DNA of 64,000 nucleotides from Candidatus Sungiibacteriota bacterium (GTDB lineage Bacteria > Patescibacteriota > Minisyncoccia > Sungbacterales > HO2-52-23). The notes beneath the pieces were generated by a model. The model ran no database searches, was not told where the DNA came from, and saw only the letters and a list, made by a program, of their open reading frames with translations. The position numbers and the translations under genes are program-made. The DNA is taken from NCBI GenBank assembly GCA_016196115.1, contig JACPYI010000023.1, positions 1,348 through 65,347 of the forward strand. The letters run 5' to 3'. This document shows positions 8,469 through 38,411 of the stretch, in pieces (positions within the stretch are counted from its first letter, which is position 1; each line of letters opens with the position of its first letter).

Positions 8469-8478
8469 ACATGTATGC

Positions 8479-10086: not shown

Positions 10087-10214
10087 TGTGCACCCCTTTC
10101 ATTGGTTGTTTGTGAAGCAATATGTAGGAGAAGCGTATACTTTATTTGCGATTTTGTCAAAAGGTATGCGTTAAGGTTGTAAAAGATGTCCTTTTAGAAT
10201 ATAAAGGAGAATAT

Positions 10215-11027: not shown

Positions 11028-11048
11028 TACATTCAAAAATCATATCTC

Positions 11049-11078
11049 AAGGCCTCACCCAAAGGCCTTGACTTTTTT
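11049..11078 (+). terminator. Rho-independent terminator after the GDPD gene
   Basis: AAGGCCT-cacccaa-AGGCCTT 7-bp stem-loop followed by gaCTTTTTT. Confidence 0.6.
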
Positions 11079-11137
11079 GCTGCAAAGCATAGGATTGTAC
11101 CATTCTTGTTTCTTTGACAGAACAGAGGAGGAAAGAA

Positions 11138-14806: not shown

Positions 14807-14810
14807 ACGG

Positions 14811-15629
14811 TCAAATAATGTCGGCGAAATAACGTTCAACGGTTTTGAAATAAGCGGTGCCGATGACCAGCGCCGCGAGGCACGCGAACGACGAGATCGC
14901 AAGCAGCGTCCAATTGATGGGCGTGGTGCCCAGGATCGCTGCCCGGGCTGCCTGGATCACGCCAGTCATGGGGTTGAGCGCGAGGAGCCGCGAGTACTTG
15001 CCGGCGATGCTCGCCGGGTAGATCACGGGGGTGAGAAAGAGCATGATCTGTATGAAAAACGGAAGCACGTACCGCACATCGCGGTATCTTACGTTGAGGG
15101 CGGCAAGAAACAGACCCATTCCCACGGCTGCCATAAAGGTAATAAGCAGCAGCAACGGGAGGATGGCAAGCCCCATAAGGCGCGGCACGTATCCATAATA
15201 GATCATCATGCCGATTAAAATAAGTGATGCGACGGCAAAGTCAATGAATTTGGTCATGACTGCCGAGAGCGGCAGGATCAGGCGCGGAAAATATACTTTA
15301 GTGATAATCGCCTGATTGCCGATCAGGGTTGAACTCGTCTCGGAAAGCGCTCCGGAAAAGAATTGCCAGAAAAGCAGGCCCACGTACACAAAAATAGGAT
15401 AGGGGACGCTGTCCGATGGGATATGCGCGAGTTTGCCGAAAAACACGCTGAAGACGATCATCGTGACAAACGGCTGGAAAAGGGCCCACCCGACCCCGAT
15501 CACGGTCTGCTTGTAGCGCACTTTGAGATCGCGCCACGTAAAAAAATAAAGCAGCTCGCGATAACGCCACAATTCCCGCGCGTCTTCAATGCTTATTTTT
15601 TTCTTGGGCCTGATAATGATTGATTGCAT
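14811..15629 (-). CDS. wzm: ABC-2 type polysaccharide export permease (Wzm-like)
   Basis: Six predicted TM segments and ABC-2 family pattern; adjacent to and co-oriented with the ATPase. Start MQSIII at 15629. Confidence 0.8.
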   Translation of the reverse strand: MQSIIIRPKKKISIEDARELWRYRELLYFFTWRDLKVRYKQTVIGVGWALFQPFVTMIVFSVFFGKLAHIPSDSVPYPIFVYVGLLFWQFFSGALSETSSTLIGNQAIITKVYFPRLILPLSAVMTKFIDFAVASLILIGMMIYYGYVPRLMGLAILPLLLLITFMAAVGMGLFLAALNVRYRDVRYVLPFFIQIMLFLTPVIYPASIAGKYSRLLALNPMTGVIQAARAAILGTTPINWTLLAISSFACLAALVIGTAYFKTVERYFADII

Positions 15630-19470: not shown

Positions 19471-21234
19471 ATGTGCGGCATAATTGCTCTTGCAGGTAAA
19501 AAAATTGCGGACATCTCGCCGAATCGTATTGACGCGATGCTGGATTCGCTTGCGCGCCGCGGACCCGACGATCGCGGGGTTTTGTCTTTCCCCTCCTGCG
19601 TGCTCGGCCAGACACGGCTTTCCATTCTTGACCTTTCCGGCGGACACCAGCCAATGCGAGACAACCAAAAAAACATCGCGGTCACGTTCAACGGCGAGAT
19701 TTACAACTACCGGGAATTAAAAAAAGATCTCGAACGGAAGGGGCACGTCTTCTCGACAAAATCTGACACTGAGGCGATCCTCAAGTGCTATCGCGAATAC
19801 GGCGCCGACTGCCCGAAATATCTTGACGGCATGTTTGCATTTATCGTCTGGGACGACGAAAAGCAGATGCTTTTTGCGGCGCGCGACCGGTTTGGCAAGA
19901 AACCGCTCTACTATGGGTTTGACGGCCATGGCACGCTCTTCATGGCATCGGAAATCAAAGCGCTTGCGCGGGCAGGCATTCGCGGAGTCATTGATCCTGA
20001 AGCGATCGACAATTACCTCACGCTCATGTACATACCGCCGTGGAAAAGCGTGTACGCAAATATCCATGTGATTCCGCCCGCATACAGCGCTTCGTTCAAG
20101 ATCGGCTGGAACACGCCGGCTTTTTCCCGCTACTGGCGGCTCGAATCCAATCCCCTTTCGGTCTCGTACGCTGATGCGAAAAAAGAAATCAAGCGGCTTT
20201 TTCTGGATTCAGTGCGCAAACGCATGATCGCGGATGTCGAGATAGGCGCATTGCTCTCGGGAGGCGTTGATTCCACGCTGGTATGCGCGTACGCGCAAAA
20301 GTTTTCCCGCCATCCGTTAAAGACATTCACTGTCGGCTATGAGCATTATATCAATGAGCTGCCCTATGCCCGCGAGGCATCCGAGACGATCGGCACGGAT
20401 CATTATACCCTGCAGGCAACAAGCGATCTGACGCATGAACTTACCAGCGTAATCGGCTACATGGATGAACCGCATGCCGATTCGTCCAACTTTCCCCAGC
20501 ATCTTGTCTCAAGGCTCGCTGCATCAAAAGTAAAGGTTGCGCTTTCCGGCGACGGCGCGGACGAATTGTTCATGGGCTACGGGTGGTACTGGAAATATCG
20601 GAATGTGCGCAAGGTCACGCAGATCAAAAACGCGCTGATTTCAAATCCATTTCAGGAGCACCTGAAGCTCATATCCGTTTTCCAGCCGCATGAACGCCGC
20701 AAACTCTGGAAAAACCCGGATGCGGTGAACGGCGACATTGTCGGAGAACAGGCGGAAGCATGCAAAAAAAATAATACGCAAAAGATCAATTTATTCGATC
20801 TGACCGCCTATCTTCCCGGACGGCTTTTAACTAAAGTGGACCGCACCAGTATGATGCATTCCCTGGAGGTGCGCTGCCCGTTTCTTGACTACCGGCTTGC
20901 CGAGTATGTATACAACTTGCCAGAAAAGTATAAAATGGACGGGGCGAGCGGAAAAATCATTTTGAAGGACATGCTCCGCGAGATCATGCCCGAAGAATTC
21001 GTGTACCGGCGCAAGCAGGGTTTTGGCGCGCCCGTAAGCGACTGGCTGAAAACCGATGCCATGAAAAAACTGGTGCATGAAAAACTCGGCGGCGCTGCGA
21101 TGATCTATGAATTTCTTAATAAAGAAGCAGTTACGGATTATCTGCGCGATTTCTACAGCCGTGACCATGTCAAAACGCATTACAAGATTTGGGTGCTGCT
21201 CTGTCTGGAGCTTTGGCTGGAGACCAGGCAATAA
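19471..21234 (+). CDS. asnB: Asparagine synthase (glutamine-hydrolysing) family amidotransferase
   Basis: N-terminal MCGIIAL (Cys2 nucleophile) and PP-loop SGGVDST. Within a polysaccharide locus it is probably a sugar-acid amidotransferase (WbpS-like) rather than housekeeping AsnB. Confidence 0.85.
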
Positions 21235-21336: not shown

Positions 21337-22332
21337 ATGAAAATACTCGTTACCGGCGGCGCCGGATTCATCGGTCATCATATCGTTCAATATTTTCTCG
21401 AAAAAACTGACTGGGACATCATCGTGCTTGACCGGCTTGATATTTCGGGAAATCTGAATCGCCTGGCCGACCTACCAAATTGGGAATCAGGCAAAACCAG
21501 GGTACAATTCGTCTATCACGATTTCAAAGCTCCCATCACTGAATTTATCAGCAGGCAAATCGGCGATGTGGAGTATATTCTTCATCTCGGCGGGTCAACC
21601 CATGTCGATCGCAGTATTGAGGATCCTGCCTCTTTCGCGATGGACAATGTGCTTGGCACGACCAACATGCTTAATTATGCGAGGACGCTCAAGAATCTCA
21701 AACGATTTATAAATTTTTCAACCGATGAGGTATTCGGACCGGCGCCAGAGGGCTATGCGCATAAGGAAAGCGACCCTTATCGTCCGTCAAATCCCTATTC
21801 GGCATCAAAAGCCGGAGCGTCTGCAATGGGGTACGCCTTTTTCATTACCTACGGCCTGCCGGTCGTTACTACGTATGCGATGAATAACTTCGGCGAGCGG
21901 CAACATCCGGAGAAACTCATACCCAAAATAATCCGCGCCGTCATGGAGCAAAAACCGATGCCGATTTTTGCAGCCGTGGATCCGGCAACCGGCCGCATGA
22001 CTTCTATCGGAAGCAGATGCTGGCTTCATTGCCGCAATACCGCCTCGGCGCTCTATTTGCTTTTGGAACACGGCGTACCGGGAGAATCGTATGCTATTAT
22101 CGGTTTTGATGAACTTTCGAATCTTGAGATTGCCCAAAAGATCGCGGCATATGCCGGTAAGCCCCTTATCCCGCATCTTATTGATTTTCATGCCATACGG
22201 CCCGGTCATGACGCGCGCTACGCTCTTGACGGATCAAAGATGAAAAAAATGGGGTGGGTTCCCGAAATTGACTTTGACACCTCGCTCAAACAGACGGTTG
22301 AGTTCGCCCTGCACAATCCCCAATGGAGCTAA
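21337..22332 (+). CDS. dTDP-glucose 4,6-dehydratase-like NAD-dependent epimerase/dehydratase
   Basis: [30 protein letters not shown] (YxxxK). RBS AAGAGGA. Confidence 0.8.
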   Translation: MKILVTGGAGFIGHHIVQYFLEKTDWDIIVLDRLDISGNLNRLADLPNWESGKTRVQFVYHDFKAPITEFISRQIGDVEYILHLGGSTHVDRSIEDPASFAMDNVLGTTNMLNYARTLKNLKRFINFSTDEVFGPAPEGYAHKESDPYRPSNPYSASKAGASAMGYAFFITYGLPVVTTYAMNNFGERQHPEKLIPKIIRAVMEQKPMPIFAAVDPATGRMTSIGSRCWLHCRNTASALYLLLEHGVPGESYAIIGFDELSNLEIAQKIAAYAGKPLIPHLIDFHAIRPGHDARYALDGSKMKKMGWVPEIDFDTSLKQTVEFALHNPQWS

Positions 22333-23048
22333 AAGGAATCATTCTTGCGGGAGGAAAAGGAACGCGGCTTATGCCGGCGACTTTGGTTATGAATAAGCAC
22401 CTTATTCCCGTCCTGAATAAACCGATGATCCTGTATCCGCTGGAAACGCTTACCAAAGTATTCGGCATAAAAGAGATTATGCTTATTTCATCCGGCGAGC
22501 ATATCGGCCAATTTGCGAATTTTCTCGGTGATGGATCGGCATATGGATGTTCGCTTACCTATAGAGTACAAAAAGATGCGGGCGGTATTGCCCAAGCGCT
22601 TGGTCTCGCGCGCAATTTCGCGGATACGAGCAGATCCATTGTCATTTTAGGCGACAATATTTTTGATAATGGGCAACTTGCAAAAGATGCAGGTGATTTC
22701 AGTCCGAAAGATGATGCGTGCGTATTTTTAAAAGAAGTTGAAGATGCTCACCAATTCGGCGTGCCTACTTTTTCGTCCGATATGGCCATAGACCTCATCA
22801 CCGAAAAGCCGGCTCATCCCAGTTGCAATGTTGCGGTTGTCGGTCTGTATTCCTTTCCGCCGGATGTTTTTGAGATTATTAAAACTTTGAAACCTTCTCA
22901 ACGCGGCGAGCTTGAAATAACGGAAGTCAATAACTCGTATGCAAAAAGGGGAAAACTTACTCATAAAATCCTGACCGGATTTTGGTCTGATGCCGGCACG
23001 CAAGAATCTCTTGCACGCACCACCAAGTGGGCTTTTTCAAACTTATAA
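22323..23048 (+). CDS. Sugar-1-phosphate nucleotidyltransferase (short RmlA-like)
   Basis: GIILAGGKGTRLMPAT and VILGDNIFD motifs; overlaps the upstream gene stop. Confidence 0.8.
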   Translation: MELKGIILAGGKGTRLMPATLVMNKHLIPVLNKPMILYPLETLTKVFGIKEIMLISSGEHIGQFANFLGDGSAYGCSLTYRVQKDAGGIAQALGLARNFADTSRSIVILGDNIFDNGQLAKDAGDFSPKDDACVFLKEVEDAHQFGVPTFSSDMAIDLITEKPAHPSCNVAVVGLYSFPPDVFEIIKTLKPSQRGELEITEVNNSYAKRGKLTHKILTGFWSDAGTQESLARTTKWAFSNL

Positions 23049-23081
23049 CGGGCTGCGCGCAAAACGCGTGGAAAGAAAAAT

Positions 23082-24098
23082 ATGAGTACGAAAAATCAAA
23101 AGCTTTTCATAAGCGGCGGATCCGGGTTTATAGGGCACCACGTCATTGATTATGCGCTAAAAAACACTGCATGGGATATTGTTTCCATCGACATGCCGAT
23201 GCGAGCAAGGAATCCTGCTCGGCTGGCTGAAATACTTACCGGCAAAAACAAAAAACGAGTATCTATTATCTACTACGACCTTCAAAAACCTCTGGAAGAA
23301 AATCTGCGGAAAAAGATAGGAAATCCCGACTACATGTTACACCTCGCGGCTTCTTCCAGCGTACCTCAAAGCATCGGGAATCCGCTGCCTTTCGTCATGA
23401 ACAACGTGCTGGCGACGATGAATATTCTTGAATACGCACGAGCGCTGACAAAAAACCATACATTAAAAAAGTTCATCAATTTTTCTACGGTCGAGGTTTT
23501 CGGTCCGGCAAGAAACGGTTACTCGCATAAAGAAGAAGACGCATATAACCCATCAAACCCGTATGCCGCATCAAAAGCAAGCCAGGCGTCTCTTGGCCGC
23601 GCCTATGCGACCAGCTTTGAACTGCCCGTCATAACAACCTTTACCATGAATACCTTCGGAGAACGCCAATACCCGGAGAAATTCATACCGACAGTAATCC
23701 GCTCCGTAAGAGAAGGCAAAGCCGTCCCCATCTTTGCCGAACTGGATGATAGAGGCAAACTCAAAACTATCGGTTCGCGCTATTGGATATATGCCCAAAA
23801 TACCGCCTCGGCGCTTTTATTTTTACTCAAAAAAGGGAAAAACGGCGAATCTTACAATATCGTCGGATTTGACGAATACAATAATCTTGAAATCGCCCAA
23901 AAAATATCCGGCATTATCGGCATGCCGCTCCGTCATGAATTCGTGGACTACCGGAAGCATAACCCGGGCCATGAAAACAGGTATGCGCTTGACGGGACAA
24001 AAATCAAAAATATGGGGTGGTCCCCGGAAATCACTTTTGACAAGGCCATGGAGCGGGTTGTAACATTTACGCTTCACAATCCCGAATGGCTTGCATAA
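23082..24098 (+). CDS. dTDP-glucose 4,6-dehydratase-like NAD-dependent epimerase/dehydratase, paralog of 21337..22332
   Basis: LFISGGSGFIGHH, STVEVFG, YAASKASQAS. Roughly 50-55% identity by eye to the gene two positions upstream. Confidence 0.8.
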   Translation: MSTKNQKLFISGGSGFIGHHVIDYALKNTAWDIVSIDMPMRARNPARLAEILTGKNKKRVSIIYYDLQKPLEENLRKKIGNPDYMLHLAASSSVPQSIGNPLPFVMNNVLATMNILEYARALTKNHTLKKFINFSTVEVFGPARNGYSHKEEDAYNPSNPYAASKASQASLGRAYATSFELPVITTFTMNTFGERQYPEKFIPTVIRSVREGKAVPIFAELDDRGKLKTIGSRYWIYAQNTASALLFLLKKGKNGESYNIVGFDEYNNLEIAQKISGIIGMPLRHEFVDYRKHNPGHENRYALDGTKIKNMGWSPEITFDKAMERVVTFTLHNPEWLA

Positions 24099-26100: not shown

Positions 26101-27198
26101 TTAAAATGGCTCTTTAAGGATTTGTTTTTTGAGCTCCGCAATATCCGCGTAGGGGGCCAGGGCGGGTTCGCGGGCCGTCAGATAGAGGAGGAGGCGGAGC
26201 GTGCCTTTTTCGGTCAGATGGCCGGCATCGTATAATTCCGCGTCTGATGAGCCAATGGTTTCGAGATTGCGCAGATCATGGAAATGATACTGGTATCGCT
26301 CAAAGAGCGCGGCAAGTGTGGCGGGCGCTGCGCGGAATTCTTCTCCATGCAAATCGCGCAAGGACCAAATGGCGCGATAAATTTCCAGAGCATAGGGCGA
26401 GAAATATCCGATCACAACTATGTTTCTTTCGCGGGCGAGCGCAAGGAACTTTTTAACTTCCGCAAGATTGCGCAGCGATACGGCAGAGAATTTGTCGATC
26501 TCGGGAATATTGTCCGCAACCTGCAGAGCCATGGGGAGCGCGTTTTTTCTCATATCCAGAATTTCCGGAAGAGTCCCCCGGCTTAAACTGCCGTCCGCGC
26601 GGAATCCGGCGTGGTGCATGAGTGCGACAAGACCGATGGACTCCGTGGTTTTTCTTTCGCGCATCAGCCCACGAACGGAAAATTTTCCTGCCGCATAATC
26701 AAGATATGCGGCCCGCCACCCGGAAGAAAGGAACGCGCGGAGCATATCAGAAGCGCTTGCCTGCTGGTGCTCATCTTGGACAGCGGCATCATAGAGCAGA
26801 TTCGTAGCGTCAAAAAGAATTACGGCCAGGTTGTTGTCATGCGGCAGCGCGTTGAGGTAATGGGACAGATCTGCGGCGCTATACACTCCCCTGCCCGCAT
26901 TGTAAAACGCATCTTCGCGTCTGAAAAAACGGGCGCGGAATGTCAGCGATTGAGACAATCCCAGCGCTACGATCTGCGGGTTTCTCGCGATGGTTGAAAG
27001 AAGTTTATACGGCTTTTCGGTATACGAGGTAAATGCGGATTGGTACAAGATGTCTTGTCCCGGGTTTTGCTGCTGGCGGCTGACTATCGCGGATACGGGC
27101 AGCAATTCGCGCCCCAATATAAATACGGCGAGCGGAAATATAAAAATCCCGAGCACCGGAATACTGAATAGGGCGCATTTGAGGAGAAATCGTGCCAT
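26101..27198 (-). CDS. AlgJ/AlgX/DltD-like extracytoplasmic O-acyltransferase partner protein (N-terminal membrane anchor)
   Basis: N-terminal TM helix (FSIPVLGIFIFPLAVFIL). Size and genomic context (immediately downstream of an MBOAT) are typical of the AlgJ/AlgX/DltD family. ATG 27198 is 6 nt after the MBOAT stop. Confidence 0.6.
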   Translation of the reverse strand: MARFLLKCALFSIPVLGIFIFPLAVFILGRELLPVSAIVSRQQQNPGQDILYQSAFTSYTEKPYKLLSTIARNPQIVALGLSQSLTFRARFFRREDAFYNAGRGVYSAADLSHYLNALPHDNNLAVILFDATNLLYDAAVQDEHQQASASDMLRAFLSSGWRAAYLDYAAGKFSVRGLMRERKTTESIGLVALMHHAGFRADGSLSRGTLPEILDMRKNALPMALQVADNIPEIDKFSAVSLRNLAEVKKFLALARERNIVVIGYFSPYALEIYRAIWSLRDLHGEEFRAAPATLAALFERYQYHFHDLRNLETIGSSDAELYDAGHLTEKGTLRLLLYLTAREPALAPYADIAELKKQILKEPF

Positions 27199-27204
27199 GG
27201 CCAA

Positions 27205-28680
27205 TTAAAATTTAAAATAGATGAACGGCTGCGCGCCAAAATATCCCAAAAAAAGCGTACCGAAAATAAGCGCGTAGTACCAACTCCAGCGAACGGCGCG
27301 GCTCTTCTTTTCAAAAATAAATACTGTATTGAGTTTGGCCTGCGCGTATTGGACACACTCGAGAAAACATATCCCGATTACGATAGCCCCCGCCGATCTG
27401 AAGCCGAAATTGCCGGATGCAAACAGAGATTGCCAGCGCGTGAGCGCTGTGGGCAGATGCAGGAACGCGGATTTTGTTTTCGCCAATACATACAGCGCTT
27501 GCGCGACAGTCGCTGCCCGAAAAAATACAAAACTTACGCAAACCAGCGCAAAAACGGCAAGGGTCTGCCATGTTTTGAGCAAGGCCGGGTAAGCGGAAAA
27601 TCCAATGAACGCCGCCGTGCGCTTTCGCGCATCCGCAGTCCAGAGCGCAAGCACCAGATAGCCGCCATGCAACGAGCCGAACACCACATATGTCCAGTTT
27701 GCGCCATGCCACAACCCGATCAGTATAAAGGTGATGAAAAGACCGGCGTAGAGGCGCGTCTTCGTTACCTTTTTTCCGGCGAACGCAAGCGGATAATAGA
27801 GATAATCGCGCAGCCAGCTTGAAAGCGAGATATGCCACCGCCGCCAGAATTCCGCGATGGAGCGAGACGCATACGGACGATTAAAATTATTCGTTACATC
27901 ATAGCCGAACACGAGAGCCGATCCGACCGCAATATCGGAGTACCCGGAAAAATCACAATAGATCTGGTAGGAAAACAGTATGGCCGCAAGAAAAATCGCA
28001 AGGTCGCTTGATGCGCCTAAATTTCCATACACATGGTTTACCAGCAAAGCAATCCGGTCGGCTATGACCAGTTTTTTAAAAAATCCCCAGAGCATCAGTT
28101 CAAGTCCCTGCCGCACCCGCACTGCGTCAAAGACGTGCGGCTCGTGGAATTGATGCAGCATGTGCTGCGGACGCTCTATAGGTCCGGCAACGAGCTGGGG
28201 AAAAAACATCACGTAGAGGGCATAGACACCGAAGTGGCGCTCGGGCTTTTGTTTGCCGCGGTATGCTTCGATCACATAACTCAAACTCTGAAACACGTGG
28301 AATGACAGGCCAAGCGGCAGCAGAATATGCAGCAGCGCCGGGGAATAATTCCAATGGATCGCGCGTGCAAGAACCGCGATGTTCTCATTGAAGAAGTTGA
28401 AATATTTAAAAAAGAAAAGCGTGCCGAGATTGGCGATGACGCTCCCGACAAGAAACATTTTTCGCCGCACGCCCCTTGAGCGCGCGATAGAGAGCCCCAG
28501 AAAATAGTCGACCGTAATGAGAAAAAATAAAACAAGAATGAACGCCGGCACAAATGCCATGTAAAAATAGCAGCTCCCGGCAAGCAATAATATCCAGCGG
28601 TATCGGTCCGGAACGACCGCGTAATACGCGAGAAAAACCGCGGCGAAGAAGATGAGAAATTGCAGCGAGTTGAATAGCAT
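27205..28680 (-). CDS. MBOAT-family membrane-bound O-acyltransferase (AlgI/DltB-like)
   Basis: Multi-pass membrane protein with the conserved MBOAT core ...WRRWHISLSSWLRDYLYYPL...GLWHGANW (invariant His). Confidence 0.85.
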   Translation of the reverse strand: MLFNSLQFLIFFAAVFLAYYAVVPDRYRWILLLAGSCYFYMAFVPAFILVLFFLITVDYFLGLSIARSRGVRRKMFLVGSVIANLGTLFFFKYFNFFNENIAVLARAIHWNYSPALLHILLPLGLSFHVFQSLSYVIEAYRGKQKPERHFGVYALYVMFFPQLVAGPIERPQHMLHQFHEPHVFDAVRVRQGLELMLWGFFKKLVIADRIALLVNHVYGNLGASSDLAIFLAAILFSYQIYCDFSGYSDIAVGSALVFGYDVTNNFNRPYASRSIAEFWRRWHISLSSWLRDYLYYPLAFAGKKVTKTRLYAGLFITFILIGLWHGANWTYVVFGSLHGGYLVLALWTADARKRTAAFIGFSAYPALLKTWQTLAVFALVCVSFVFFRAATVAQALYVLAKTKSAFLHLPTALTRWQSLFASGNFGFRSAGAIVIGICFLECVQYAQAKLNTVFIFEKKSRAVRWSWYYALIFGTLFLGYFGAQPFIYFKF

Positions 28681-29447
28681 TACGATAACGCGCCGGATTC
28701 CGGGGCGACGAGCAGCGTAAGATTGCTCACATGAACCGCATGATCAGAACAGAGAAACGACACTGCATCTGCCACGTCATCGGCCGAAGCGAATTTTTTA
28801 GCCGGACTTTTTTCGCGCGCCATATCCACGAATGCCTGCGGTATATCGAGGTTCATGCCGCCAGACATAAAGCCGGGAGCCACAGAGTACACGCGCACGT
28901 GATGCGGGGCAAGCTCTTGGCGGAGCATGGCAAGCATGCCCTGCAGCGCATATTTTGCCGGCACATATGCGCCGAGACCTTGCCCCGCTTCCGAGATCAG
29001 CACGGCCGATGTGGTAATGCCGATAATGACGCCTGCCGTGCGTTCTTTCATGGCAAGGGCGCAGGCCGAGAGAAAATGAAAACCGCCGGAGACGGTTACG
29101 CTCAACTGATCGCGCAGGTCTTGGGACGAGGAGCGGAGCAACGACCCGCGGTGCGGTCCGATCCCTGCCGCATGCACGGATATGCCGATCTGCCCCATGT
29201 CGCGTTCGATTTTTGCAATCGTTTCGGCAACTTGTCCGGCATCTTCAAGATCGCATTGGTATGCGCAGTGTCCCGATCCCGGCAGCAGAGTTATCATATC
29301 GTTTACGGTTTTTTCCGGAGTACGATGATAGAGCAGAGCCACGCGCATCCCGTCGGCCGCGAGTTTTCGGGCGATAGCCGAGCCGACATATCCGGACCCG
29401 CCTGAGATCGCCGCAACTTTTCCATTTTCTGTTTGTGCGTCAGTCAT
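28680..29447 (-). CDS. SDR-family oxidoreductase (3-oxoacyl-ACP reductase-like)
   Basis: AAISGGSGYVGSAIARKL (TGxxxGxG-like), YVPAKYAL (YxxxK). Confidence 0.8.
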   Translation of the reverse strand: MTDAQTENGKVAAISGGSGYVGSAIARKLAADGMRVALLYHRTPEKTVNDMITLLPGSGHCAYQCDLEDAGQVAETIAKIERDMGQIGISVHAAGIGPHRGSLLRSSSQDLRDQLSVTVSGGFHFLSACALAMKERTAGVIIGITTSAVLISEAGQGLGAYVPAKYALQGMLAMLRQELAPHHVRVYSVAPGFMSGGMNLDIPQAFVDMAREKSPAKKFASADDVADAVSFLCSDHAVHVSNLTLLVAPESGALS

Positions 29448-29460
29448 GGTCTATGCATCG

Positions 29461-29883
29461 TCATATAAGCACCTGCACCGTTGCGATGCCCGTGAGAACT
29501 TCCTCATCATCTTTGGTGATCGAGACCCCGATCTCAAGCACTCCGGTTGATTCGCTCTTGGCCCGTACCACGCCCTGAACTACGACCGTATCGCCGATAA
29601 AAACCGGTTTGCGGAAGAAAAGCGTCTGCGAAAGATATAGGCATCTTTTCCCCGGCAGATACATGCCTACCAGCGTAGAGCATAAAGAACCCACGAGCAT
29701 ACCGTGCGCCAGCCGGCGTCCGAATCGCGTTGTCCGGGCATACGCCTCATCAAGATGAAGCGGGTTTTGATCCCCGCTCAATCGGGCGAACGCCAGCACG
29801 TCATTCCGGGTAAATATCCGGGAAAAGGACGCGGTATCGCCGACCGAGATGTCTTTGAGGAGCAGATCCTTGGGGTTAACCAT
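29461..29883 (-). CDS. MaoC-like (R)-specific enoyl/hydroxyacyl thioester dehydratase, hotdog fold
   Basis: FARLSGDQNPLHLDEAYA (MaoC signature D-x-N-P-[LI]-H). Start ATG 29883 overlaps the carrier-protein stop. Confidence 0.75.
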   Translation of the reverse strand: MVNPKDLLLKDISVGDTASFSRIFTRNDVLAFARLSGDQNPLHLDEAYARTTRFGRRLAHGMLVGSLCSTLVGMYLPGKRCLYLSQTLFFRKPVFIGDTVVVQGVVRAKSESTGVLEIGVSITKDDEEVLTGIATVQVLI

Positions 29884-30109
29884 GTTTTTTCCCCCGCGCT
29901 TCAATGATCCCGCGGATATCGCCAAGGCATTGCGTGGTCATAACCTCATCCATGCTGAACGACAGATCGAATTCTTTTTCAAGCTCCGCGACAAAAAGCA
30001 GATAGTTCATCGAATCCCATTCAGGAATATCTTTCGAAGAAAGGCCATCGTGGATTTCCGCATCGGATATCTTGAAGACCTCGGCTACAATGTTATTGAA
30101 TGTCCTCAT
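29876..30109 (-). CDS. Stand-alone acyl/peptidyl carrier protein
   Basis: 78 aa; phosphopantetheine-attachment motif EWDSMNYLLFVAELE (D-S-[LM] with conserved Ser). ATGA overlap with the upstream FkbH-like gene. Confidence 0.75.
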   Translation of the reverse strand: MRTFNNIVAEVFKISDAEIHDGLSSKDIPEWDSMNYLLFVAELEKEFDLSFSMDEVMTTQCLGDIRGIIEARGKKHG

Positions 30110-31149
30110 AGTTCGCGCACCGTTATCCATGAAGGGAACTCGGGCGTTTTTGGCACGGGACGGGAGTGGTCGAAAAATCGCGTCTCGACAAACTCGCGGG
30201 CAGGTTCGTTTTTCAACGTCTCGTGAAATGCGATCGTCATGCGCCGGGCTCCGGCTTCATGCGCGCGCTTCAGCATCACGCCAAGCATCGCATCCTCCAC
30301 GCCGCGCCCGAATACGCGGCAGCTCATGAGCAAAGAACGGATATGCCATTGGTCTTTCTTTTTATCCACCAATGCGAACGCAATCACGCCATGATCCCCG
30401 AACTTATCCTGAAGCCGCGCATGGAAAACCGCGCTATCCGGACTGGCCATGGCCTTGGCAATTTCGGTTTCCGTAAAAGGCATCTTGTTGGTATTGAATT
30501 GATTCGTTTTTTCCGTCAGCTGCGCCAGACGCGGCATGCAGGATCCGTCGTCTTCATGCACGAAAAGCTCGAGTGCCAGGCCGTGCAAAAAATCTTCTTT
30601 GTTCCCGTGCTTCTTTTCCTCTTCTTTGCGGAGACGCTCGGTAACGTAAAAATTTCCGCGCATCGTATCCTCGTCGGTTATCGCATGAGACGCGAAACAG
30701 TTGAGTGAATTCAAAAAACTGGCGTATTGGGACGGATCATGCGGCATATCCGGCGTTTCAACCTCGGGCACCAGCGCGCGCGCAAGTTCACGGTTGGTCG
30801 GGTCGTCGTCGAGAAACACCATCGCATCAAGGCCGATGTTCAGTTCCCGAGCAAGCTCACGCAAATTTTCGGCTTTGTCGTTCCAATTAATGCGGGCAGC
30901 CGCAAAATGATTTTCTTTTAAAATCATGTTGGGATGCTTCCGAATGACTTCCCATGCCTCATCCGGATTATTCCTGCTATTGATGGCCAAAATAACGCCC
31001 CGATGATAATGATCGAGAATCGCCTGCTGAAAAGCGATAAAGCCGCTGCCCGGAGGATCAAGCGAGAGCGCGATGTTTTTCATCCCGTCTTCGCCGACCA
31101 CGCCTCCCCACAGCGTATTATCAAGATCCAACACGAGACATTTCTTCAT
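30106..31149 (-). CDS. FkbH-like HAD-IIIC phosphatase/acyltransferase (carrier-protein loading enzyme)
   Basis: HAD-IIIC motif I LVLDLDNTLWGG, VFLDDDPTN (motif IV), plus about 150-aa C-terminal domain as in FkbH/OzmB-type glyceryl-ACP-forming enzymes. Confidence 0.7.
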   Translation of the reverse strand: MKKCLVLDLDNTLWGGVVGEDGMKNIALSLDPPGSGFIAFQQAILDHYHRGVILAINSRNNPDEAWEVIRKHPNMILKENHFAAARINWNDKAENLRELARELNIGLDAMVFLDDDPTNRELARALVPEVETPDMPHDPSQYASFLNSLNCFASHAITDEDTMRGNFYVTERLRKEEEKKHGNKEDFLHGLALELFVHEDDGSCMPRLAQLTEKTNQFNTNKMPFTETEIAKAMASPDSAVFHARLQDKFGDHGVIAFALVDKKKDQWHIRSLLMSCRVFGRGVEDAMLGVMLKRAHEAGARRMTIAFHETLKNEPAREFVETRFFDHSRPVPKTPEFPSWITVREL

Positions 31150-31173
31150 GGCATTGTCATGGTAACGCACATG

Positions 31174-31539
31174 TTAGCGCATTGCAACAGCCGCAGCCAT
31201 GGTGCGAGTATGGGCGATTGAAACCCGCACGGGAAGCTTGCGGCCGTTTTTCCACACATGCGGCGTGCCGTCTTTCGCATGGCGAATTTCCAGCTCCGCA
31301 AAAGGAAAGCGCGCCGTACCCAGCGCCTTGCTTGCCGCTTCCTTTGCCGCAAAAATACCGGCCAGGTGGATGCTTGGTTTTTTATATTGAAAACAATAGA
31401 GAATTTCACGCGCGGAAAAGACTTTTTTTAAGAACGCATGCCGCGGATTGCGGCTGAACCGGCGGAATCGGGAAACATCCACCAGGTCAATCCCGATGTT
31501 GCATGTTCCTTGCGCGGTGCGGCCTGACTGTGTAGCCAT
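31174..31539 (-). CDS. acpS: Holo-[acyl-carrier-protein] synthase (4'-phosphopantetheinyl transferase, AcpS type)
   Basis: IGIDLVDVSRF and FAAKEAASKALG, canonical AcpS motifs; about 120 aa. Confidence 0.8.
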   Translation of the reverse strand: MATQSGRTAQGTCNIGIDLVDVSRFRRFSRNPRHAFLKKVFSAREILYCFQYKKPSIHLAGIFAAKEAASKALGTARFPFAELEIRHAKDGTPHVWKNGRKLPVRVSIAHTRTMAAAVAMR

Positions 31540-31543
31540 ACGA

Positions 31544-32569
31544 TCACCGATGAAAACTTTTCTGCCACTCAATGGTACGCGAGAGGCCTTCCGAAAACGG
31601 CGTAAAGGTCATTGTTTTCATTTCCCGCTTTATTTTGGTGAGGTTGAGTTTTACAAACCCCGGGTCTTTTCCGATGTGGATCAAGGAGGAGGAGCGGGAA
31701 GGGACACGATAGGGCACCCTGCATTGTTGTGCAATTTTTTTTGCAAGATTACGCACAGAGATGCTCTCTTGGCCTCCCACATTGTACACCATATCGCGGC
31801 CGTGCAATGCCACAAAAAGGATCATGGCAACGCTGTCGGCAACATAGCCGTATGTCTTGACTGATTTTCCCGCATCAAGCAGCGTGATATTTTTTTCGGT
31901 CAGGGCTTTGTGTATAAACTCGCTCATCACGCGCTTGTCTCCGGGCGGAAGCCCGGGGCCGTAGCTATGCGAGATGCGGACGATCTTGACATCCGCACCT
32001 TTGTCTCGCGTGTATGCCGCGCACAGCGCCTCGCCAAGCCGTTTTGATTCCGCATAGACGGACCGGGGCTTGTGCAGGGGGCAGTTACCGTTGAAATCCT
32101 CGCGAGTCGGGCGAAACTGCGCAGGGATATCGCCGTAGATTTCCGCAGAGCTGAAAAATAGAAATGTGGCGCGAGGCGATCCGTCCAATAATCTTTGCAC
32201 CGCGTCGGTGTTGACCGCGATCGTTGACCCTGGATCCGCAATGAACCGCGCGGGCTGACCATAGCCGGCAGCGTGAAAAATATAATCGTACCCGCTCAGA
32301 CGAAAAGGGCGCGACATGTCAATGCGCCGGTAGGAAATGCGCGGATCATCGGCGAGCAAATCCTTGAGGATTGATTTTGGCGCATGCAGGCCAACAGCAT
32401 GGATGGTGCAGTGCAGCTCCATTTCACGGTTGGCAAGCGAGAGTGTACTTACGATATGCTGCCCGAGAAATCCGCTTGCGCCGGTAATGAGAATCTTTTT
32501 ATTCCGAATTTTTTTGACATCCACCCGGCGCAAAATGTCGCGGCAATCGCGCTCAATAATGCTATTCAT
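31544..32569 (-). CDS. NAD-dependent epimerase/dehydratase (UDP-sugar decarboxylase/dehydratase-like SDR)
   Basis: KILITGASGFLGQHIV, YAESKRLGE (YxxxK). 8-bp overlap with the upstream TPP-enzyme gene. Confidence 0.8.
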   Translation of the reverse strand: MNSIIERDCRDILRRVDVKKIRNKKILITGASGFLGQHIVSTLSLANREMELHCTIHAVGLHAPKSILKDLLADDPRISYRRIDMSRPFRLSGYDYIFHAAGYGQPARFIADPGSTIAVNTDAVQRLLDGSPRATFLFFSSAEIYGDIPAQFRPTREDFNGNCPLHKPRSVYAESKRLGEALCAAYTRDKGADVKIVRISHSYGPGLPPGDKRVMSEFIHKALTEKNITLLDAGKSVKTYGYVADSVAMILFVALHGRDMVYNVGGQESISVRNLAKKIAQQCRVPYRVPSRSSSLIHIGKDPGFVKLNLTKIKREMKTMTFTPFSEGLSRTIEWQKSFHR

Positions 32570-34403
32570 GCGTTTCGGTTTTTTCGATTTTTGCATCGCC
32601 GCCCGGAAGCGGAGGGTTTTCCCATCCCTCGACCGGCTCTATGATCATATTTGTGCGAAATTCATCGCGGGGCAGGTACGGATACATGTCTTCAATGGGG
32701 GTGGCCCATCCGAACACGCGTGGCTCATAGGCATACCAGTCGCCGCAGTCAACATCGCAGATCAGAGGGCCGTCATAGGCAAGCGCTTCCTGGATCATCT
32801 TTCGCGCTTCATCGTTTCCGGTGAGCCGCCGGGCGGAAATGCCATATGCATCAACGATTTTTACAAAATCCGGAGTAACGTATCCTTTGGGGCCGGATGC
32901 CTCATAACGCCCCTCCACATTTGTTTCCTGAAACGCCCTGATGATGCCGTACATATGGTTATTCATGATAAACGTCTTCACCTTGATGCCGTAGGTACGC
33001 AGGGTCTGCACCTCCTGAATGTTCATGGTAAAACCGCCGTCTCCGATAATGCAGACGACATTTTGTTTTTTATCGGACGCAAACCACGCGCCCATGGCCC
33101 CACAGAAAGAAAAACCCATCGGTGAATTACCGTTGTTGGTGATATAGCGCTGCCCGTTTTTCGTCTCAAACGCATGATTGCCTGTTACGATATTTCCGCC
33201 GCAATCGGCAACAAGAATATCCCGTGCCTGCATCTCCTGCGACAAGATCCTCATGAACGCGTACGGATTCACGTGCTCATGAGACGCAAAAAATTCAGGA
33301 CGCACCGGATCATACTTGTCCTTCCATTCCAAGACCCGATTCGTCCACGACGATACGTCAGGCAGGGCAATACCGGTAAGTTTCTTTTCAAGGCGCTCAA
33401 GAAAAATTCTTGCATCGCATAAGATGCTCACGTCAAAAGGCACTTGCTGGAGTTTTTTCTGCACAAGTGCGGGATCAACATCCACCACGTATTTTTTTGC
33501 CGCGCGCGCAAATGTCTTTAGATTTCCTCCGGTGATGCGCCCCGATATCCGGCTACCCACCGCAAGCAGAAGATCGCTGTTTTGAAGGCCGAAATTACGC
33601 CCCCGTCCGCCGTATGTACCCACGCGCCCGCCGTAATACTCATAATCGGAAGGTACGACATCAAGCGCGTTCCATGTCGGAAACACGGGAATTTTGAGCA
33701 TGCGCCCCACCCGCTGCAGAAGCGCTTGGGCATGCGCAATGCCCACTCCTCCGCCGATCAGCATAACCGGACGTTTTGATTGCTGCAGATCGCTCAACAA
33801 CTCGTCTATCTTTTTATCAACCATCGCGATATCGTATGCTCCGCGGACTGCCTCGGCGTCAAATCCGACCATTTTTTCAGGATCCACCTCCACTTTCTGG
33901 AAATTCTGGGGAATATCAAGCAGCACCGGGCCGGGCCGGCCGTTGGTTGCAAAAAACATGGCTTTTTCGAGCTCATATTTTATGTCCTCTGGTCTGGCGA
34001 TAAGTTTTGCATACTTGGTGATGGGAGAGACGATTGCGACAATATCCGTCTCCTGGAATCCCACCTGGCGGATGGACGGATCCGAGCGCAGAAATTCCGA
34101 GTTGATCTGACCGGTTATGAAAATTGCCGGAACCGAGTCGTAGTAACAATTGCCGATGGGAGTTACCAAGTTCATGCCGCCGGGTCCGCTTGTTGCAATC
34201 GCAACTCCGGGCAGACCCTTGATCTTGGCATACCCTTCGGCCGCAAATCCGGCTGCCTGCTCGTGCATCGTTGCCACATATTGGGTTTTGTCCGTGCGCG
34301 TGAACGCGTCAATAAGGTACGCGTTGGCCGCGCCCGATACGACAAACATTTTGTCTATTCCGGCCTCTGCCAAATAGGTAATGACAAAATCGGCAAGTTT
34401 CAT
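32562..34403 (-). CDS. Thiamine-diphosphate-dependent enzyme, acetolactate-synthase-like (IlvB/YerE-like)
   Basis: 613 aa with all three TPP-enzyme domains; GDGGF TPP-binding motif (IGDGGFTMNIQE) and N-terminal Pyr domain. Confidence 0.8.
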   Translation of the reverse strand: MKLADFVITYLAEAGIDKMFVVSGAANAYLIDAFTRTDKTQYVATMHEQAAGFAAEGYAKIKGLPGVAIATSGPGGMNLVTPIGNCYYDSVPAIFITGQINSEFLRSDPSIRQVGFQETDIVAIVSPITKYAKLIARPEDIKYELEKAMFFATNGRPGPVLLDIPQNFQKVEVDPEKMVGFDAEAVRGAYDIAMVDKKIDELLSDLQQSKRPVMLIGGGVGIAHAQALLQRVGRMLKIPVFPTWNALDVVPSDYEYYGGRVGTYGGRGRNFGLQNSDLLLAVGSRISGRITGGNLKTFARAAKKYVVDVDPALVQKKLQQVPFDVSILCDARIFLERLEKKLTGIALPDVSSWTNRVLEWKDKYDPVRPEFFASHEHVNPYAFMRILSQEMQARDILVADCGGNIVTGNHAFETKNGQRYITNNGNSPMGFSFCGAMGAWFASDKKQNVVCIIGDGGFTMNIQEVQTLRTYGIKVKTFIMNNHMYGIIRAFQETNVEGRYEASGPKGYVTPDFVKIVDAYGISARRLTGNDEARKMIQEALAYDGPLICDVDCGDWYAYEPRVFGWATPIEDMYPYLPRDEFRTNMIIEPVEGWENPPLPGGDAKIEKTETHE

Positions 34404-34407
34404 ATGA

Positions 34408-35622
34408 TCATACTATGCTACCGCACAATGCGGCTTTGCGCAATCTCTGGCATCCTTCGCGGAGATTTTTTTCGGTGTTTGCGTAGCAGATCCGAACATA
34501 ATTTTTTCCGCAGGGACCGAATCCGGAACCCGGACATACGACCACGCCGTGTTCCTCCATGGCGTATTCCGTAAATGTATCTCCGTCCATGCCGGTCTTG
34601 GATACGTTGATCATCAGATAAAAAGCTCCGGCCGGTTTTGAAAATTCAAATTGCTTGATTTCTTCCAGCTCACCACAGGCAATATCGCGCAGCTTTTTAT
34701 ATTCCGCAAGGTACCGTCGGCTGAACTCGCGGCGGCGCTCAAGCGCGATCACGCATGCATCCTGCAAAAAAGGCGGGACGCACGAGACAATGGTCTGGGA
34801 GAGCAGAATTATTTTCTCAATCACCCGCTCCGGCCCCACGGCATATCCCACGCGCCATCCGGTCATGGCAAAGGGCTTTGAAAAACCATTGGTCACAATC
34901 ACGCGCTCGGCGCACGCATCAAGCACGCCGGGAGAAAAATGCGCGCCCTCGTATACCAGGCGCGAGTAGATCTCATCACTCAATATAAAAAGGTTATGAT
35001 CTTTGGCAAGCGCATATACTTTCGCAATGTCGCTTTTGGCGTATACGGCGCCGGTCGGATTTGCCGGAGAATTAAGCACGATCAGGCGCGTGTTGGGCGT
35101 GATACGTTTCTCAATCTCGGCCGGATCAAAGCGAAAATTATTTGTGTGCGTGACAGGCACGCGCACACCCTTGATCTTGAGCATCGCAAGCACGGCATTG
35201 TACGTGACAAACGCGGGATCGGTCAAAATCACCTCCTCTCCCGGATTCACGAGCACGGCAAGCGCATAATAAATCAAGGGGTTTGCGCCGGAGGTCACCA
35301 CGATTTGCGAAAGGGACGGGGTGAATTTAAAGTCCTCCTTCACTGCCTTTTGTATTGCCAGGCGCAGCGCGTATTCTCCGGACGAATCGCCGTAGTGAGT
35401 GCGCCCGGCTTTGAGCGCCGCAATCGCGCTTTTTTTCACTTCCGGCGGCATTTCAAGATGCGTGTCGCCTATTTCAAAATGGATCAGGTCTTTCCCCTGC
35501 CGCTCCAGATCCTTTGCCATTGCCAAAATCCGAAACATGGACTGTCCCGAAATCCTTTGCGCAAACCGTGAGAGCGGTATGGGTTCGTTTCTTTTCCGGA
35601 GATGCTTCATTGCCGATAGCAT
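34408..35622 (-). CDS. PLP-dependent aminotransferase, class I/II (aspartate-aminotransferase fold)
   Basis: SKPFAMTGWRVGY (PLP-lysine region SK..TGWR[VI]GY) and NPTG substrate loop. Start uncertain: ATG at 35622 or 35610; the ORF-track start is a TTG. Confidence 0.75.
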   Translation of the reverse strand: MLSAMKHLRKRNEPIPLSRFAQRISGQSMFRILAMAKDLERQGKDLIHFEIGDTHLEMPPEVKKSAIAALKAGRTHYGDSSGEYALRLAIQKAVKEDFKFTPSLSQIVVTSGANPLIYYALAVLVNPGEEVILTDPAFVTYNAVLAMLKIKGVRVPVTHTNNFRFDPAEIEKRITPNTRLIVLNSPANPTGAVYAKSDIAKVYALAKDHNLFILSDEIYSRLVYEGAHFSPGVLDACAERVIVTNGFSKPFAMTGWRVGYAVGPERVIEKIILLSQTIVSCVPPFLQDACVIALERRREFSRRYLAEYKKLRDIACGELEEIKQFEFSKPAGAFYLMINVSKTGMDGDTFTEYAMEEHGVVVCPGSGFGPCGKNYVRICYANTEKNLREGCQRLRKAALCGSIV

Positions 35623-35770
35623 ACTATGATTCCCGTCAATAATCAAACGATCAAAAAACCGGAAAAGTTACTTTTCCGGCATATCCTCTCCCAAAAAATA
35701 ACATAGAATCGCGGAAAAGGCAAATGACTCGAATCTTGTCACACTCGGCAGGTTGCGATACAATTGTCTG

Positions 35771-38300: not shown

Positions 38301-38411
38301 TTTTGTGGCATGGCTGGCACCTTTATCTTCTCATAAGCAGACAAAAAAATCAAAAAAACGGCCTTGCCATGCGGTCGCGGCAAGGATATACTGAGAGACA
38401 AGCATACATTC

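Follow-up and report, generated by a model that had tools for sequence, protein, structure and literature searches.

The module is located on the minus strand of the window, the 64,000-nt stretch that was analysed of a contig from a Candidatus Sungbacteria MAG (JACPYI010000023.1), and consists of seven tightly packed genes at positions 26101-31539. The module and the genes preceding it are as follows.

31544..35646 (-), co-directional upstream genes: NAD epimerase/dehydratase 31544-32596, ThDP acetolactate-synthase-like enzyme 32562-34403 and class I/II aminotransferase 34408-35646
31174..31539 (-), holo-ACP synthase (AcpS, 121 aa), the dedicated phosphopantetheinyl transferase of the module
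30106..31149 (-), FkbH-domain loader (347 aa), with an N-terminal HAD-IIIC phosphatase domain and a C-terminal Cys acyl-transfer domain; DLDNT 31114-31128, SRN 30970-30978, LDDD 30802-30813, SCRVFGRG 30301-30324
29876..30109 (-), acyl carrier protein (77 aa), with the phosphopantetheine-attachment Ser33 in WDSM (30008-30019)
29461..29883 (-), MaoC/hotdog dehydratase (140 aa), with the hydratase-2 motif GDQNPLH (29755-29775)
28680..29447 (-), SDR/ketoreductase (255 aa), FabG-like, with GGSGYVG and YVPAK motifs
27205..28680 (-), MBOAT (491 aa), with catalytic His325 (WHGANW 27694-27711) and the C-terminal acyl-shuttle motif FIYFKF (Tyr488; 27208-27225)
26101..27198 (-), membrane-anchored extracytoplasmic SGNH-fold protein (365 aa), the putative terminal acyltransferase, with predicted catalytic residues Ser82 (GLSQS 26947-26961), Asn100 (YNAG 26893-26904) and Asp324-x-x-His327 (26218-26229)

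The initial annotation had described seven consecutive, coupled minus-strand genes at this position, and this observation was confirmed, including all of the motifs on which it rested (IGIDLVDV, DLDNTLWGG, EWDSMNY, GDQNPLH and GLWHGANW); only the carrier protein, given there as 78 aa, is corrected to 77 aa from the ATGA-overlapping start (84 aa from the first ATG of the ORF). With gene starts taken from homologue lengths, the junctions within the module were +24, -4 (ATGA, the carrier protein start overlapping the FkbH stop), -8, +13, -1 and +6 nt. Promoter-like and terminator-like hits inside the block did not exceed the shuffle expectation (13 against 11.1±3.7 and 16 against 15.9±4.9, respectively). 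The upstream genes are joined by junctions of 4, -35 and 4 nt and were assigned by Pfam and NCBIfam models; they are probably co-transcribed with the module, but no homologues lie next to the module in any other locus, and they do not belong to the conserved set. The suggestion that the co-operonic aminotransferase converts the tethered group to alanyl or seryl is therefore not supported.

Profile searches assigned the first five proteins of the module. AcpS matched PF01648 (2.7e-14) and TIGR00556 (62 bits, above the cut-off of 45). The loader matched the FkbH domain model TIGR01686 with 307 bits against a cut-off of 147, covering 8-331 of the ORF, and HAD-IIIC TIGR01681 with 73 bits; its HAD domain was alignable to B. 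fragilis BF1531 (3slr, 1.9e-41), the only solved relative, which has no assigned function. The HAD motifs (DLDNT, SRN, LDDD) and the C-terminal Cys (LMSCRVFGRG) are kept and are invariant in homologues, and more than 120 clusters share 62-76% identity with the loader, those that carry names being all Patescibacteria. The carrier protein matched PF00550 (24.9 bits against a cut-off of 20.8), and its best PDB relative was a putative ACP, 2lml, which has the same WDS motif, with no DltC hit; the Ser in WDS(M/L) was invariant in 10 homologues. The dehydratase matched PF01575 (6e-19) and PF13452 FAS1_DH_region (34 bits), and its motif is conserved in homologues. The reductase matched adh_short_C2 (3.4e-38), adh_short and the KR domain PF08659 (40 bits against a cut-off of 22.6), whereas the FabG models matched below their cut-offs.

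The initial annotation had labelled the membrane acyltransferase AlgI/DltB-type and its partner AlgJ/AlgX/DltD-like. The MBOAT matched PF03062 (9e-23), and its only PDB sequence relatives are DltB (4e-28, His aligned); the AF2 model (pLDDT 82.5) also gave DltB as the best fold match (E 3.8e-13, TM 0.69). However, it is not DltB-like in architecture, as it scored 161 bits against the cut-off of 375 of the DltB model TIGR04091 and carries, after extra C-terminal helices, the fused FXYXXF acyl-shuttle motif typical of PatA/AlgI-type enzymes, so that no DltX is needed. H325 and F486/I487/Y488/F489/F491 were invariant in 24 homologues, and FxYxxF ends 85 of 88 related MBOATs; the function of this motif was shown for PatA and DltX (PMC12148441). 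The AlgJ/AlgX label for the partner is not supported, since it has a canonical Ser...Asp-x-x-His SGNH layout and no PF16822 hit. DltD is among its best fold matches, but the resemblance is at fold level only, without sequence-level similarity.

The arrangement is not a chance juxtaposition, because the same module recurs in at least 11 independent, diverged loci, whichever gene the sampling starts from; these are designated here L001, L005, L006, L007, L010, L084, L090, L091, L092 and L093, together with an ENA contig. Sampling from the SGNH gene gave L001 (36% identity), L005 (44%) and the ENA contig, and sampling from the MBOAT gave L006, L007, L010 and L090. Sampling from FkbH gave L091 (Jorgensenbacteria), L092 and L093, all three of which (3 of 3) carry AcpS-FkbH-ACP-MaoC-SDR-MBOAT followed by a membrane-anchored SGNH-like gene. 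AcpS is the first gene of the module in L001, L005, L006, L007, L090, L091, L092 and L093. Flanking genes differ between loci, and L090 has a rearranged order with the same gene set, in which the MaoC gene has moved behind the SGNH gene but stays in the cluster; both observations argue for selection on the set rather than inherited synteny. Module-linked MBOATs form a clade in an NJ tree. The set is not entirely uniform, as L007 lacks the SDR and has a long-form FkbH, and L092 inserts a methyltransferase.

Considering all the above results, we propose with moderate confidence that this is a self-contained, carrier-protein-dependent MBOAT-SGNH pathway, which most likely esterifies a cell-surface polymer with a C3 acyl group taken directly from glycolysis. 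The gene content, intact catalytic motifs, folds, tight coupling and conservation across many ultra-small bacteria of Parcubacteria-group (CPR) lineages were established in this analysis, whereas the FkbH substrate, the order and products of MaoC and SDR, the ACP as donor of the MBOAT, the identity of the acyl group and the acceptor are inferred, without biochemical evidence. In this model, AcpS would convert the dedicated apo-ACP to holo-ACP at Ser33, and the FkbH enzyme, by analogy with characterised FkbH/OzmB enzymes, would dephosphorylate 1,3-bisphosphoglycerate, hold glycerate as a thioester on Cys277 and pass it to the ACP as glyceryl-S-ACP. The MaoC dehydratase would then remove the C3 hydroxyl, the enol tautomerising to pyruvoyl-S-ACP, and the SDR/KR would reduce this to lactyl-S-ACP, the same chemical logic as was shown for the DH-KR pair of FR901464 and lankacidin biosynthesis (PMC4765723). 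The acyl-ACP would dock on the cytoplasmic face of the MBOAT, as DltC does on DltB, and His325 would catalyse transfer to Tyr488 of the shuttle motif on the outer face, a mechanism shown for PatA and for DltB/DltX; DltB uses acyl-DltC, and PatA-type MBOATs relay the acyl group through the Tyr of the C-terminal FXYXXF motif to an SGNH Ser (PMC12148441). Finally, the SGNH protein would take the acyl group on Ser82 and place it on a hydroxyl of an extracytoplasmic glycopolymer, in this genome probably the polysaccharide made by the surrounding 60-kb glycan island. A dedicated AcpS in the operon makes sense in a lineage generally reported to lack type II fatty-acid synthesis. No such cell-envelope decoration pathway turned up in the literature, as far as open-access text could be searched, and to our knowledge no O-lactyl ester has been reported on a bacterial polymer.

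The interpretation given in the initial annotation was thus partly supported. Its core, a Dlt-like, carrier-protein-dependent polymer O-acylation pathway in which an FkbH loader replaces the adenylating ligase and MaoC plus SDR remodel the C3 unit, survived each condition set beforehand for its rejection: the FkbH catalytic residues and the carrier Ser are kept, the MBOAT is present in every homologous neighbourhood sampled from the FkbH side, and there is no sign of internal transcription signals above chance. Its DltB and AlgJ/AlgX labels and its aminotransferase proposal are the points corrected above.

Another possibility is that the MBOAT-SGNH pair is an ordinary acetyl-CoA-dependent O-acetyltransferase of the PatA/PatB or AlgI type, and that AcpS-FkbH-ACP-MaoC-SDR form a separate acyl-supply unit, for example for N-acylation of an amino sugar by a transferase encoded elsewhere, the two units merely travelling together in glycan islands. 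Enzymes with the fused FXYXXF motif are described as acyl-CoA users without carrier proteins (PMC12148441), and nothing in the MBOAT sequence marks it as ACP-dependent: it is 45-51% identical to dozens of metagenomic MBOATs with no ACP, FkbH or MaoC within about 9 kb and to that of a further locus, L089. The few clade-specific residues (L54, L61, L123, V136, F160, E194, I321) are absent from the second ACP-linked group (L084 and L037). The same SGNH family also occurs beside an MBOAT without the module (loci L011 and L068), and in loci L081 and L065 the FkbH genes lie 4-5 kb from an MBOAT rather than adjacent to it. In contrast, no alternative acyltransferase is conserved with the module, the MBOAT/SGNH pair being its only conserved candidate consumer of an acyl-ACP, and the window contains no KS, PKS, NRPS or other acyltransferase. 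In all 11 or more module loci the MBOAT directly follows the ACP-tailoring genes, often with overlapping or single-digit-nt junctions, and the linkage survives the rearrangement in L090 and complete turnover of flanking genes, including loci that are not glycan islands (L093, L006). We regard this alternative as unlikely.

It is also possible, although we consider it doubtful, that the pathway works as proposed but delivers unmodified glyceryl, pyruvoyl or another C3 derivative, with MaoC and SDR acting in a different order or on a different intermediate, or with the FkbH-like enzyme loading a substrate other than glycerate. FkbH substrates are known only for polyketide-associated family members, and members in glycan loci have not been characterised. 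The gene content of L007 and L092 suggests that the acyl group varies between lineages, and glycerate esters occur on polysaccharides such as gellan. However, MaoC and SDR are retained in nearly all loci and lie between the ACP and the MBOAT, and for a 2,3-dihydroxyacyl thioester, alpha-proton abstraction with beta-hydroxyl elimination followed by 2-keto reduction is the only simple route that uses both enzymes, and it has a biochemical precedent (PMC4765723).

A third reading, that the module makes or modifies a small molecule or lipid, such as an acylated membrane lipid or a tetronate-like or glycerate-derived metabolite, with the MBOAT acting as a lipid acyltransferase, is very unlikely. 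Eukaryotic MBOATs, which acylate lipids and proteins, were the next-best fold matches after DltB, and FkbH chemistry is classically part of secondary metabolism. However, there was no ketosynthase, FabH-like, PKS or NRPS gene in the window or in any related locus, the MBOAT carries the bacterial polymer-acylation shuttle motif and is always paired with an extracytoplasmic SGNH protein, and most loci lie among glycosyltransferases and polysaccharide exporters.

The proposed system is therefore a hybrid, with a Dlt-like carrier-protein donor and a PatA-like relay. As in the Dlt pathway (DltA, DltC, DltB, DltX, DltD) for D-alanylation of teichoic acids in Firmicutes, a small phosphopantetheinylated carrier protein is encoded beside an MBOAT and a membrane-anchored SGNH-fold protein, and the predicted lactyl group is the hydroxy isostere of alanyl. 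It differs in having no adenylating ligase, the FkbH-type HAD phosphatase/acyltransferase loader needing in this view no ATP, in a carrier without specific similarity to DltC, in the absence of DltX, and in the presence of on-carrier tailoring enzymes and a private AcpS. With the PatA/PatB, AlgI/AlgJ/AlgX/AlgF and WssH/WssI-type O-acetylation systems it shares the invariant His, the C-terminal helices ending in FXYXXF and an extracytoplasmic SGNH partner with Ser/Asn/Asp-His blocks, and the His, Tyr, Ser, polymer relay is expected to be the same, but those systems are reported to use acetyl-CoA and to lack a carrier protein (PMC12148441), whereas here a dedicated ACP, its PPTase, a loader and two tailoring enzymes are part of the operon. 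With FkbH/OzmB-type loading in polyketide pathways and the conversion of glyceryl-ACP to lactyl-ACP in FR901464 and lankacidin biosynthesis it shares the FkbH domain, a dedicated ACP and an adjacent hotdog dehydratase and KR-type reductase, the enzyme set shown to turn glyceryl-S-ACP into lactyl-S-ACP (PMC4765723). In this case, however, no PKS, NRPS or ketosynthase consumes the product, the dehydratase and reductase are discrete MaoC and SDR proteins instead of PKS domains, the predicted consumer is a membrane acyltransferase, and the host is a genome-reduced CPR bacterium rather than a secondary-metabolite producer.

Seven consecutive minus-strand genes between 26101 and 31539 were confirmed by ORF listing and by HMM scans with Pfam and NCBIfam models, so the observation made in the initial annotation was correct. 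They encode AcpS (PF01648, with TIGR00556 above its cut-off), an FkbH-domain protein (TIGR01686 and TIGR01681), a PP-binding carrier protein (PF00550), a MaoC hotdog dehydratase, an SDR that also matches the PKS KR domain, an MBOAT, and a 365-aa protein with no family hit. Gene starts were taken from homologue lengths, and with those starts the junctions within the module were +24, -4, -8, +13, -1 and +6 nt. An exact-sequence look-up of the FkbH ORF from its GTG start gave no match, as the annotated start is the downstream ATG. Promoter-like and terminator-like matches inside the block were at the shuffle expectation. Three further co-directional genes lie immediately upstream, with gaps of 4, -35 and 4 nt. 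The 365-aa protein, the MBOAT and the FkbH protein are 100% identical to proteins of a Candidatus Sungbacteria MAG on a 74-kb contig, and the NCBI taxonomy places this taxon in the Parcubacteria group of the Patescibacteria. The whole 64-kb window (1-64000) is a glycan-biosynthesis island holding glycosyltransferases, NDP-sugar dehydratases, nucleotidyltransferases, methyltransferases and an ABC-transporter ATPase, and no ketosynthase, PKS or NRPS, no tRNA, and no riboswitch or other Rfam element was found in it. The features of this island are as follows.

26101-31539, minus strand: the seven-gene module
31544-35646, minus strand: an NAD epimerase/dehydratase, a ThDP-dependent acetolactate-synthase-like enzyme (613 aa) and a class I/II aminotransferase, coupled head-to-tail to the module
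13535-14902: ABC-transporter ATPase
19471-21234: asparagine-synthase-like gene
21337-24098: two paralogous NDP-sugar 4,6-dehydratase-like genes flanking a nucleotidyltransferase
38364-40676: 770-aa ORF with no Pfam hit
45035-46615: GT1 fused to a GtrA transmembrane domain
53398-55710: double-GT protein of 770 aa
57833-61726: 1297-aa protein with a PG_binding_1 domain

The FkbH protein matched TIGR01686 over its full length with 307 bits against a cut-off of 147. It keeps the HAD motifs DLDNT, SRN and LDDD and the C-terminal catalytic Cys in LMSCRVFGRG, all of which are conserved in homologues, including long-form relatives, and its HAD domain aligns with Bacteroides fragilis BF1531. The carrier protein has an invariant Ser in WDS(M/L), but it resembles generic ACPs rather than DltC: among NCBIfam models only generic ACP models matched, below their cut-offs, and the PDB search returned ACPs and no DltC. 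None of the ten co-directional gene products hit an AMP-binding or DltA model. A PKS, NRPS or FabH-like condensing enzyme, which would be expected to consume the product of an FkbH-family loader in polyketide pathways, was not found in the window or in related loci. Directly after the ACP lie a hotdog dehydratase (PF01575; PF13452 with 34 bits) with the hydratase-2 motif GDQNPLH, and a reductase with glycine-rich and YxxxK motifs that matches the KR domain (PF08659, 40 bits against a cut-off of 22.6). Set beside the DH-KR route of FR901464 and lankacidin biosynthesis, these are discrete proteins of different subfamilies, and their activities are inferred from sequence alone.

The MBOAT has an invariant His325 (WHG), which aligns with the catalytic His of DltB, and its confident AF2 model (pLDDT 82.5) is closest to DltB. 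However, it fails the DltB equivalog model (TIGR04091, 161 bits against a cut-off of 375), is about 65 residues longer after the His, and ends in FIYFKF. H325 is invariant in the MBOAT alignment, F486, I487, Y488, F489 and F491 are invariant in 24 homologues, and FxYxxF terminates 85 of 88 related MBOATs. This is the acyl-shuttle motif FXYXXF, whose Tyr in DltX and PatA carries the acyl group from the MBOAT His to the Ser of the SGNH partner (PMC12148441). The motif is fused at the MBOAT C-terminus, and junctions of 13 nt or less around this gene leave no room for a separate DltX gene. The MBOAT thus has the His and shuttle motif of PatA/AlgI-type polymer O-acyltransferases, and the DltB-type label given in the initial annotation needs correcting.

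The seventh protein has an N-terminal transmembrane anchor helix and an SGNH core, and the SGNH fold was confirmed by fold comparison. Across 42 family members, Gly80, Ser82, Asn100 and His327 are invariant and Asp324 is at least 90% conserved, corresponding to SGNH blocks I, III and V in canonical order, with a Ser nucleophile, a block III Asn and a block V Asp-x-x-His, as in the partners of PatA/AlgI-type systems. The family is large, with 2375 representatives of 50% clusters at E<=1e-3, and has no Pfam model. A sequence link to DltD, AlgJ or AlgX was sought but could not be made: Pfam and NCBIfam searches with the protein and seven relatives gave only one marginal DUF1574 hit, and phmmer and a 42-sequence profile against PDB sequences gave nothing meaningful, so that only fold comparison places it. 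The ALGX-type domain (PF16822), with the Asp-His pair upstream of the Ser, was not found. The AlgJ-like label of the initial annotation therefore also needs correcting, and the partner is better described as a DltD-like or generic SGNH protein.

The module was conserved whichever gene was used as the starting point. From the SGNH protein, the same order with different flanks was found in the diverged loci L001 (36% identity) and L005 (a Paceibacterota MAG, 44%) and in an ENA contig. A degenerate pattern used to locate the partner family in species-representative genomes was too narrow and found L005 only, and the wider partner alignment (A2) had no stretch conserved enough for a metagenome scan, so the MBOAT alignment was used instead. 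From the MBOAT, L006 has the module with two tandem SGNH paralogues after one MBOAT (9487-11707). L090 (9469-13724) has its MaoC gene relocated behind the first SGNH gene, and a second MBOAT, called as two ORFs of 204 and 292 aa and possibly frameshifted, with a second SGNH paralogue. L007 (5580-7304) has a 574-aa long-form FkbH, with an extra N-terminal domain as in BF1531, and no SDR. From FkbH, with three picks not chosen for MBOAT content, L091 (Candidatus Jorgensenbacteria, a different candidate phylum), L092 and L093 all carry AcpS-FkbH-ACP-MaoC-SDR-MBOAT followed by a membrane-anchored SGNH-like gene. L092 has a SAM methyltransferase inserted between FkbH and ACP (8103-8984), and this variant and that of L007 suggest that the acyl group differs between lineages. 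In the Jorgensenbacteria-type loci (L091 4381-6597 and 11014-11979; L093 10981-11937) the gene after the MBOAT belongs to a different membrane-anchored SGNH-like family (FGDSS block I; 318-321 aa), which is not matched by the A2 profile, and L091 has two further GDSL/AlgX-like genes directly before AcpS. Twenty-four contig sizes were shared between the best 120 MBOAT and the best 120 FkbH homologues, which is only a rough proxy for co-location. FkbH (62-76% identity) and the MBOAT (54-67%) are unusually conserved across candidate phyla, and far more so than the surface-exposed SGNH partner (26-46%).

The association has limits. A metagenome scan with the MBOAT alignment returned 80 loci at 45-56% identity, most of which have no ACP, FkbH or MaoC within about 9 kb, and locus L089 pairs a 51%-identical MBOAT with a DUF1574-like partner inside a nonulosonic-acid cluster. 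In an NJ tree the module-linked MBOATs, together with this SGNH family, form one clade, of which two basal members, L011 and L068, lack the module nearby. In L068 (4554-8579, minus strand) the MBOAT and the same SGNH family lie next to a D-2-hydroxyacid dehydrogenase, an NTP transferase, an Ldh_2-family dehydrogenase and a TylF-type methyltransferase on the opposite strand, which is curious given the lactyl hypothesis discussed below. A second, separate group of ACP-linked MBOATs, from another MBOAT clade, was found on AT-rich contigs: L084 (1-5098) has FkbH-ACP-MaoC-SDR-MBOAT-SGNH-like followed by a NeuB-like synthase, and L037 (1-4600) has an ACP fused to a hexapeptide-repeat acyltransferase, then an MBOAT, an SGNH-like gene and an LmbE-like deacetylase. 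ACP linkage is therefore real and recurrent, appearing more than once in the MBOAT tree, but it is not a property of all close MBOAT relatives. Seven MBOAT positions (54, 61, 123, 136, 160, 194 and 321) are fixed in the Parcubacteria module-linked clade and differ from unlinked relatives, for example Ser to Ile at 321, four residues before the catalytic His, Tyr to Phe at 160 and Lys/Arg to Glu at 194. As L084 and L037 do not share them, these were rejected as a donor signature, and no residue signature shared by both linked groups was found.

Considering the above results, we propose a plausible route for the pathway. The gene content, the intact motifs and the conservation of the module are shown by the analysis, whereas the substrate of FkbH, the activities of MaoC and SDR, the donor used by the MBOAT, the acyl group and the acceptor are inferred. 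The only conserved candidate consumer of an acyl-ACP in the module is the MBOAT/SGNH pair, and DltB provides the precedent for an MBOAT that takes its acyl group from a carrier protein (PMC12148441). FkbH enzymes turn 1,3-bisphosphoglycerate into glyceryl-S-ACP, as established for polyketide pathways and in line with the family model, although no member from a glycan or envelope locus is known to have been characterised. A beta-elimination by MaoC would give the enol of pyruvoyl-ACP, and a KR-type reduction would then give lactyl-ACP, which is the conversion shown for the DH-KR proteins of FR901464 and lankacidin biosynthesis (PMC4765723). The acyl group would then follow the relay His325, Tyr488, Ser82, polymer hydroxyl. 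A private AcpS would fit a lineage generally reported to lack fatty-acid synthesis. We consider it likely that the seven genes form one functional unit and slightly more likely than not that acyl-ACP feeds the MBOAT, while the identification of the group as lactyl remains tentative. Many loci sit in glycan islands, but L093 and L006 do not, so a conserved wall polymer cannot be excluded as the acceptor.

MBOAT-SGNH polymer acylation is already known, and is currently divided into Dlt, with a carrier-protein donor and a separate DltX shuttle, and all remaining systems, with an acyl-CoA donor, a fused shuttle and no carrier protein (PMC12148441). In the proposed model the present system would work like Dlt in its donor logic and like PatAB/AlgI-J in its relay architecture, with a supply arm that is an FkbH pathway lacking a downstream condensing enzyme. 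It does not belong to Dlt by the features examined, as no DltA, DltC or DltX was found and the DltB model scored below its cut-off. The ACP, AcpS and loader genes conserved beside the MBOAT conflict with the description of PatA/AlgI-type systems as lacking a carrier protein and argue against an acyl-CoA donor, on gene context alone. Full-text literature searches found no description of this combination, and public annotations call the MBOAT 'AlgI' or 'DltB' and the FkbH protein 'HAD-IIIC family phosphatase'. The operon, which is widespread in CPR bacteria, blurs the two-class scheme and bears directly on what determines donor choice in bacterial MBOATs. It also gives a concrete biochemical handle on the cell envelope of CPR/Patescibacteria, about which very little is known. 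If the chemistry is as predicted, activation would come from the acyl phosphate of 1,3-bisphosphoglycerate and would need neither ATP nor acetyl-CoA, an economical solution for organisms with minimal metabolism, and lactyl or other C3 esters would be added to the list of envelope substituents. It is possible, though this remains a tentative reading, that Parcubacteria-group CPR bacteria and some other lineages share a previously unrecognised envelope-modification pathway, in which the already activated group is tailored to lactyl on a private carrier protein and installed as an ester on a surface polymer by a PatA-type MBOAT taking acyl-ACP instead of acyl-CoA. This would be the second carrier-protein-dependent bacterial MBOAT pathway after Dlt, the first housekeeping use of FkbH chemistry, and a source of a new polymer substituent, the uncharged isostere of D-alanyl esters.

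The interpretation in the initial annotation was thus supported in part. Its central idea, a Dlt-like, carrier-protein-dependent polymer O-acylation pathway with an FkbH-type loader in place of the adenylating ligase, stands, and it withstood the conditions set beforehand for its refutation, in that the FkbH motifs and Cys, the carrier Ser and the neighbouring MBOAT were present and internal promoters or terminators did not exceed expectation. Its further suggestion, that the co-operonic aminotransferase might act on the tethered group to give an alanyl or seryl product, was not supported, because this gene is not conserved with the module. The aminotransferase, the epimerase/dehydratase and the ThDP enzyme are absent beside the module elsewhere, and a ThDP enzyme in a sugar island suggests two-carbon branching of a keto-sugar, possibly in the manner of YerE.
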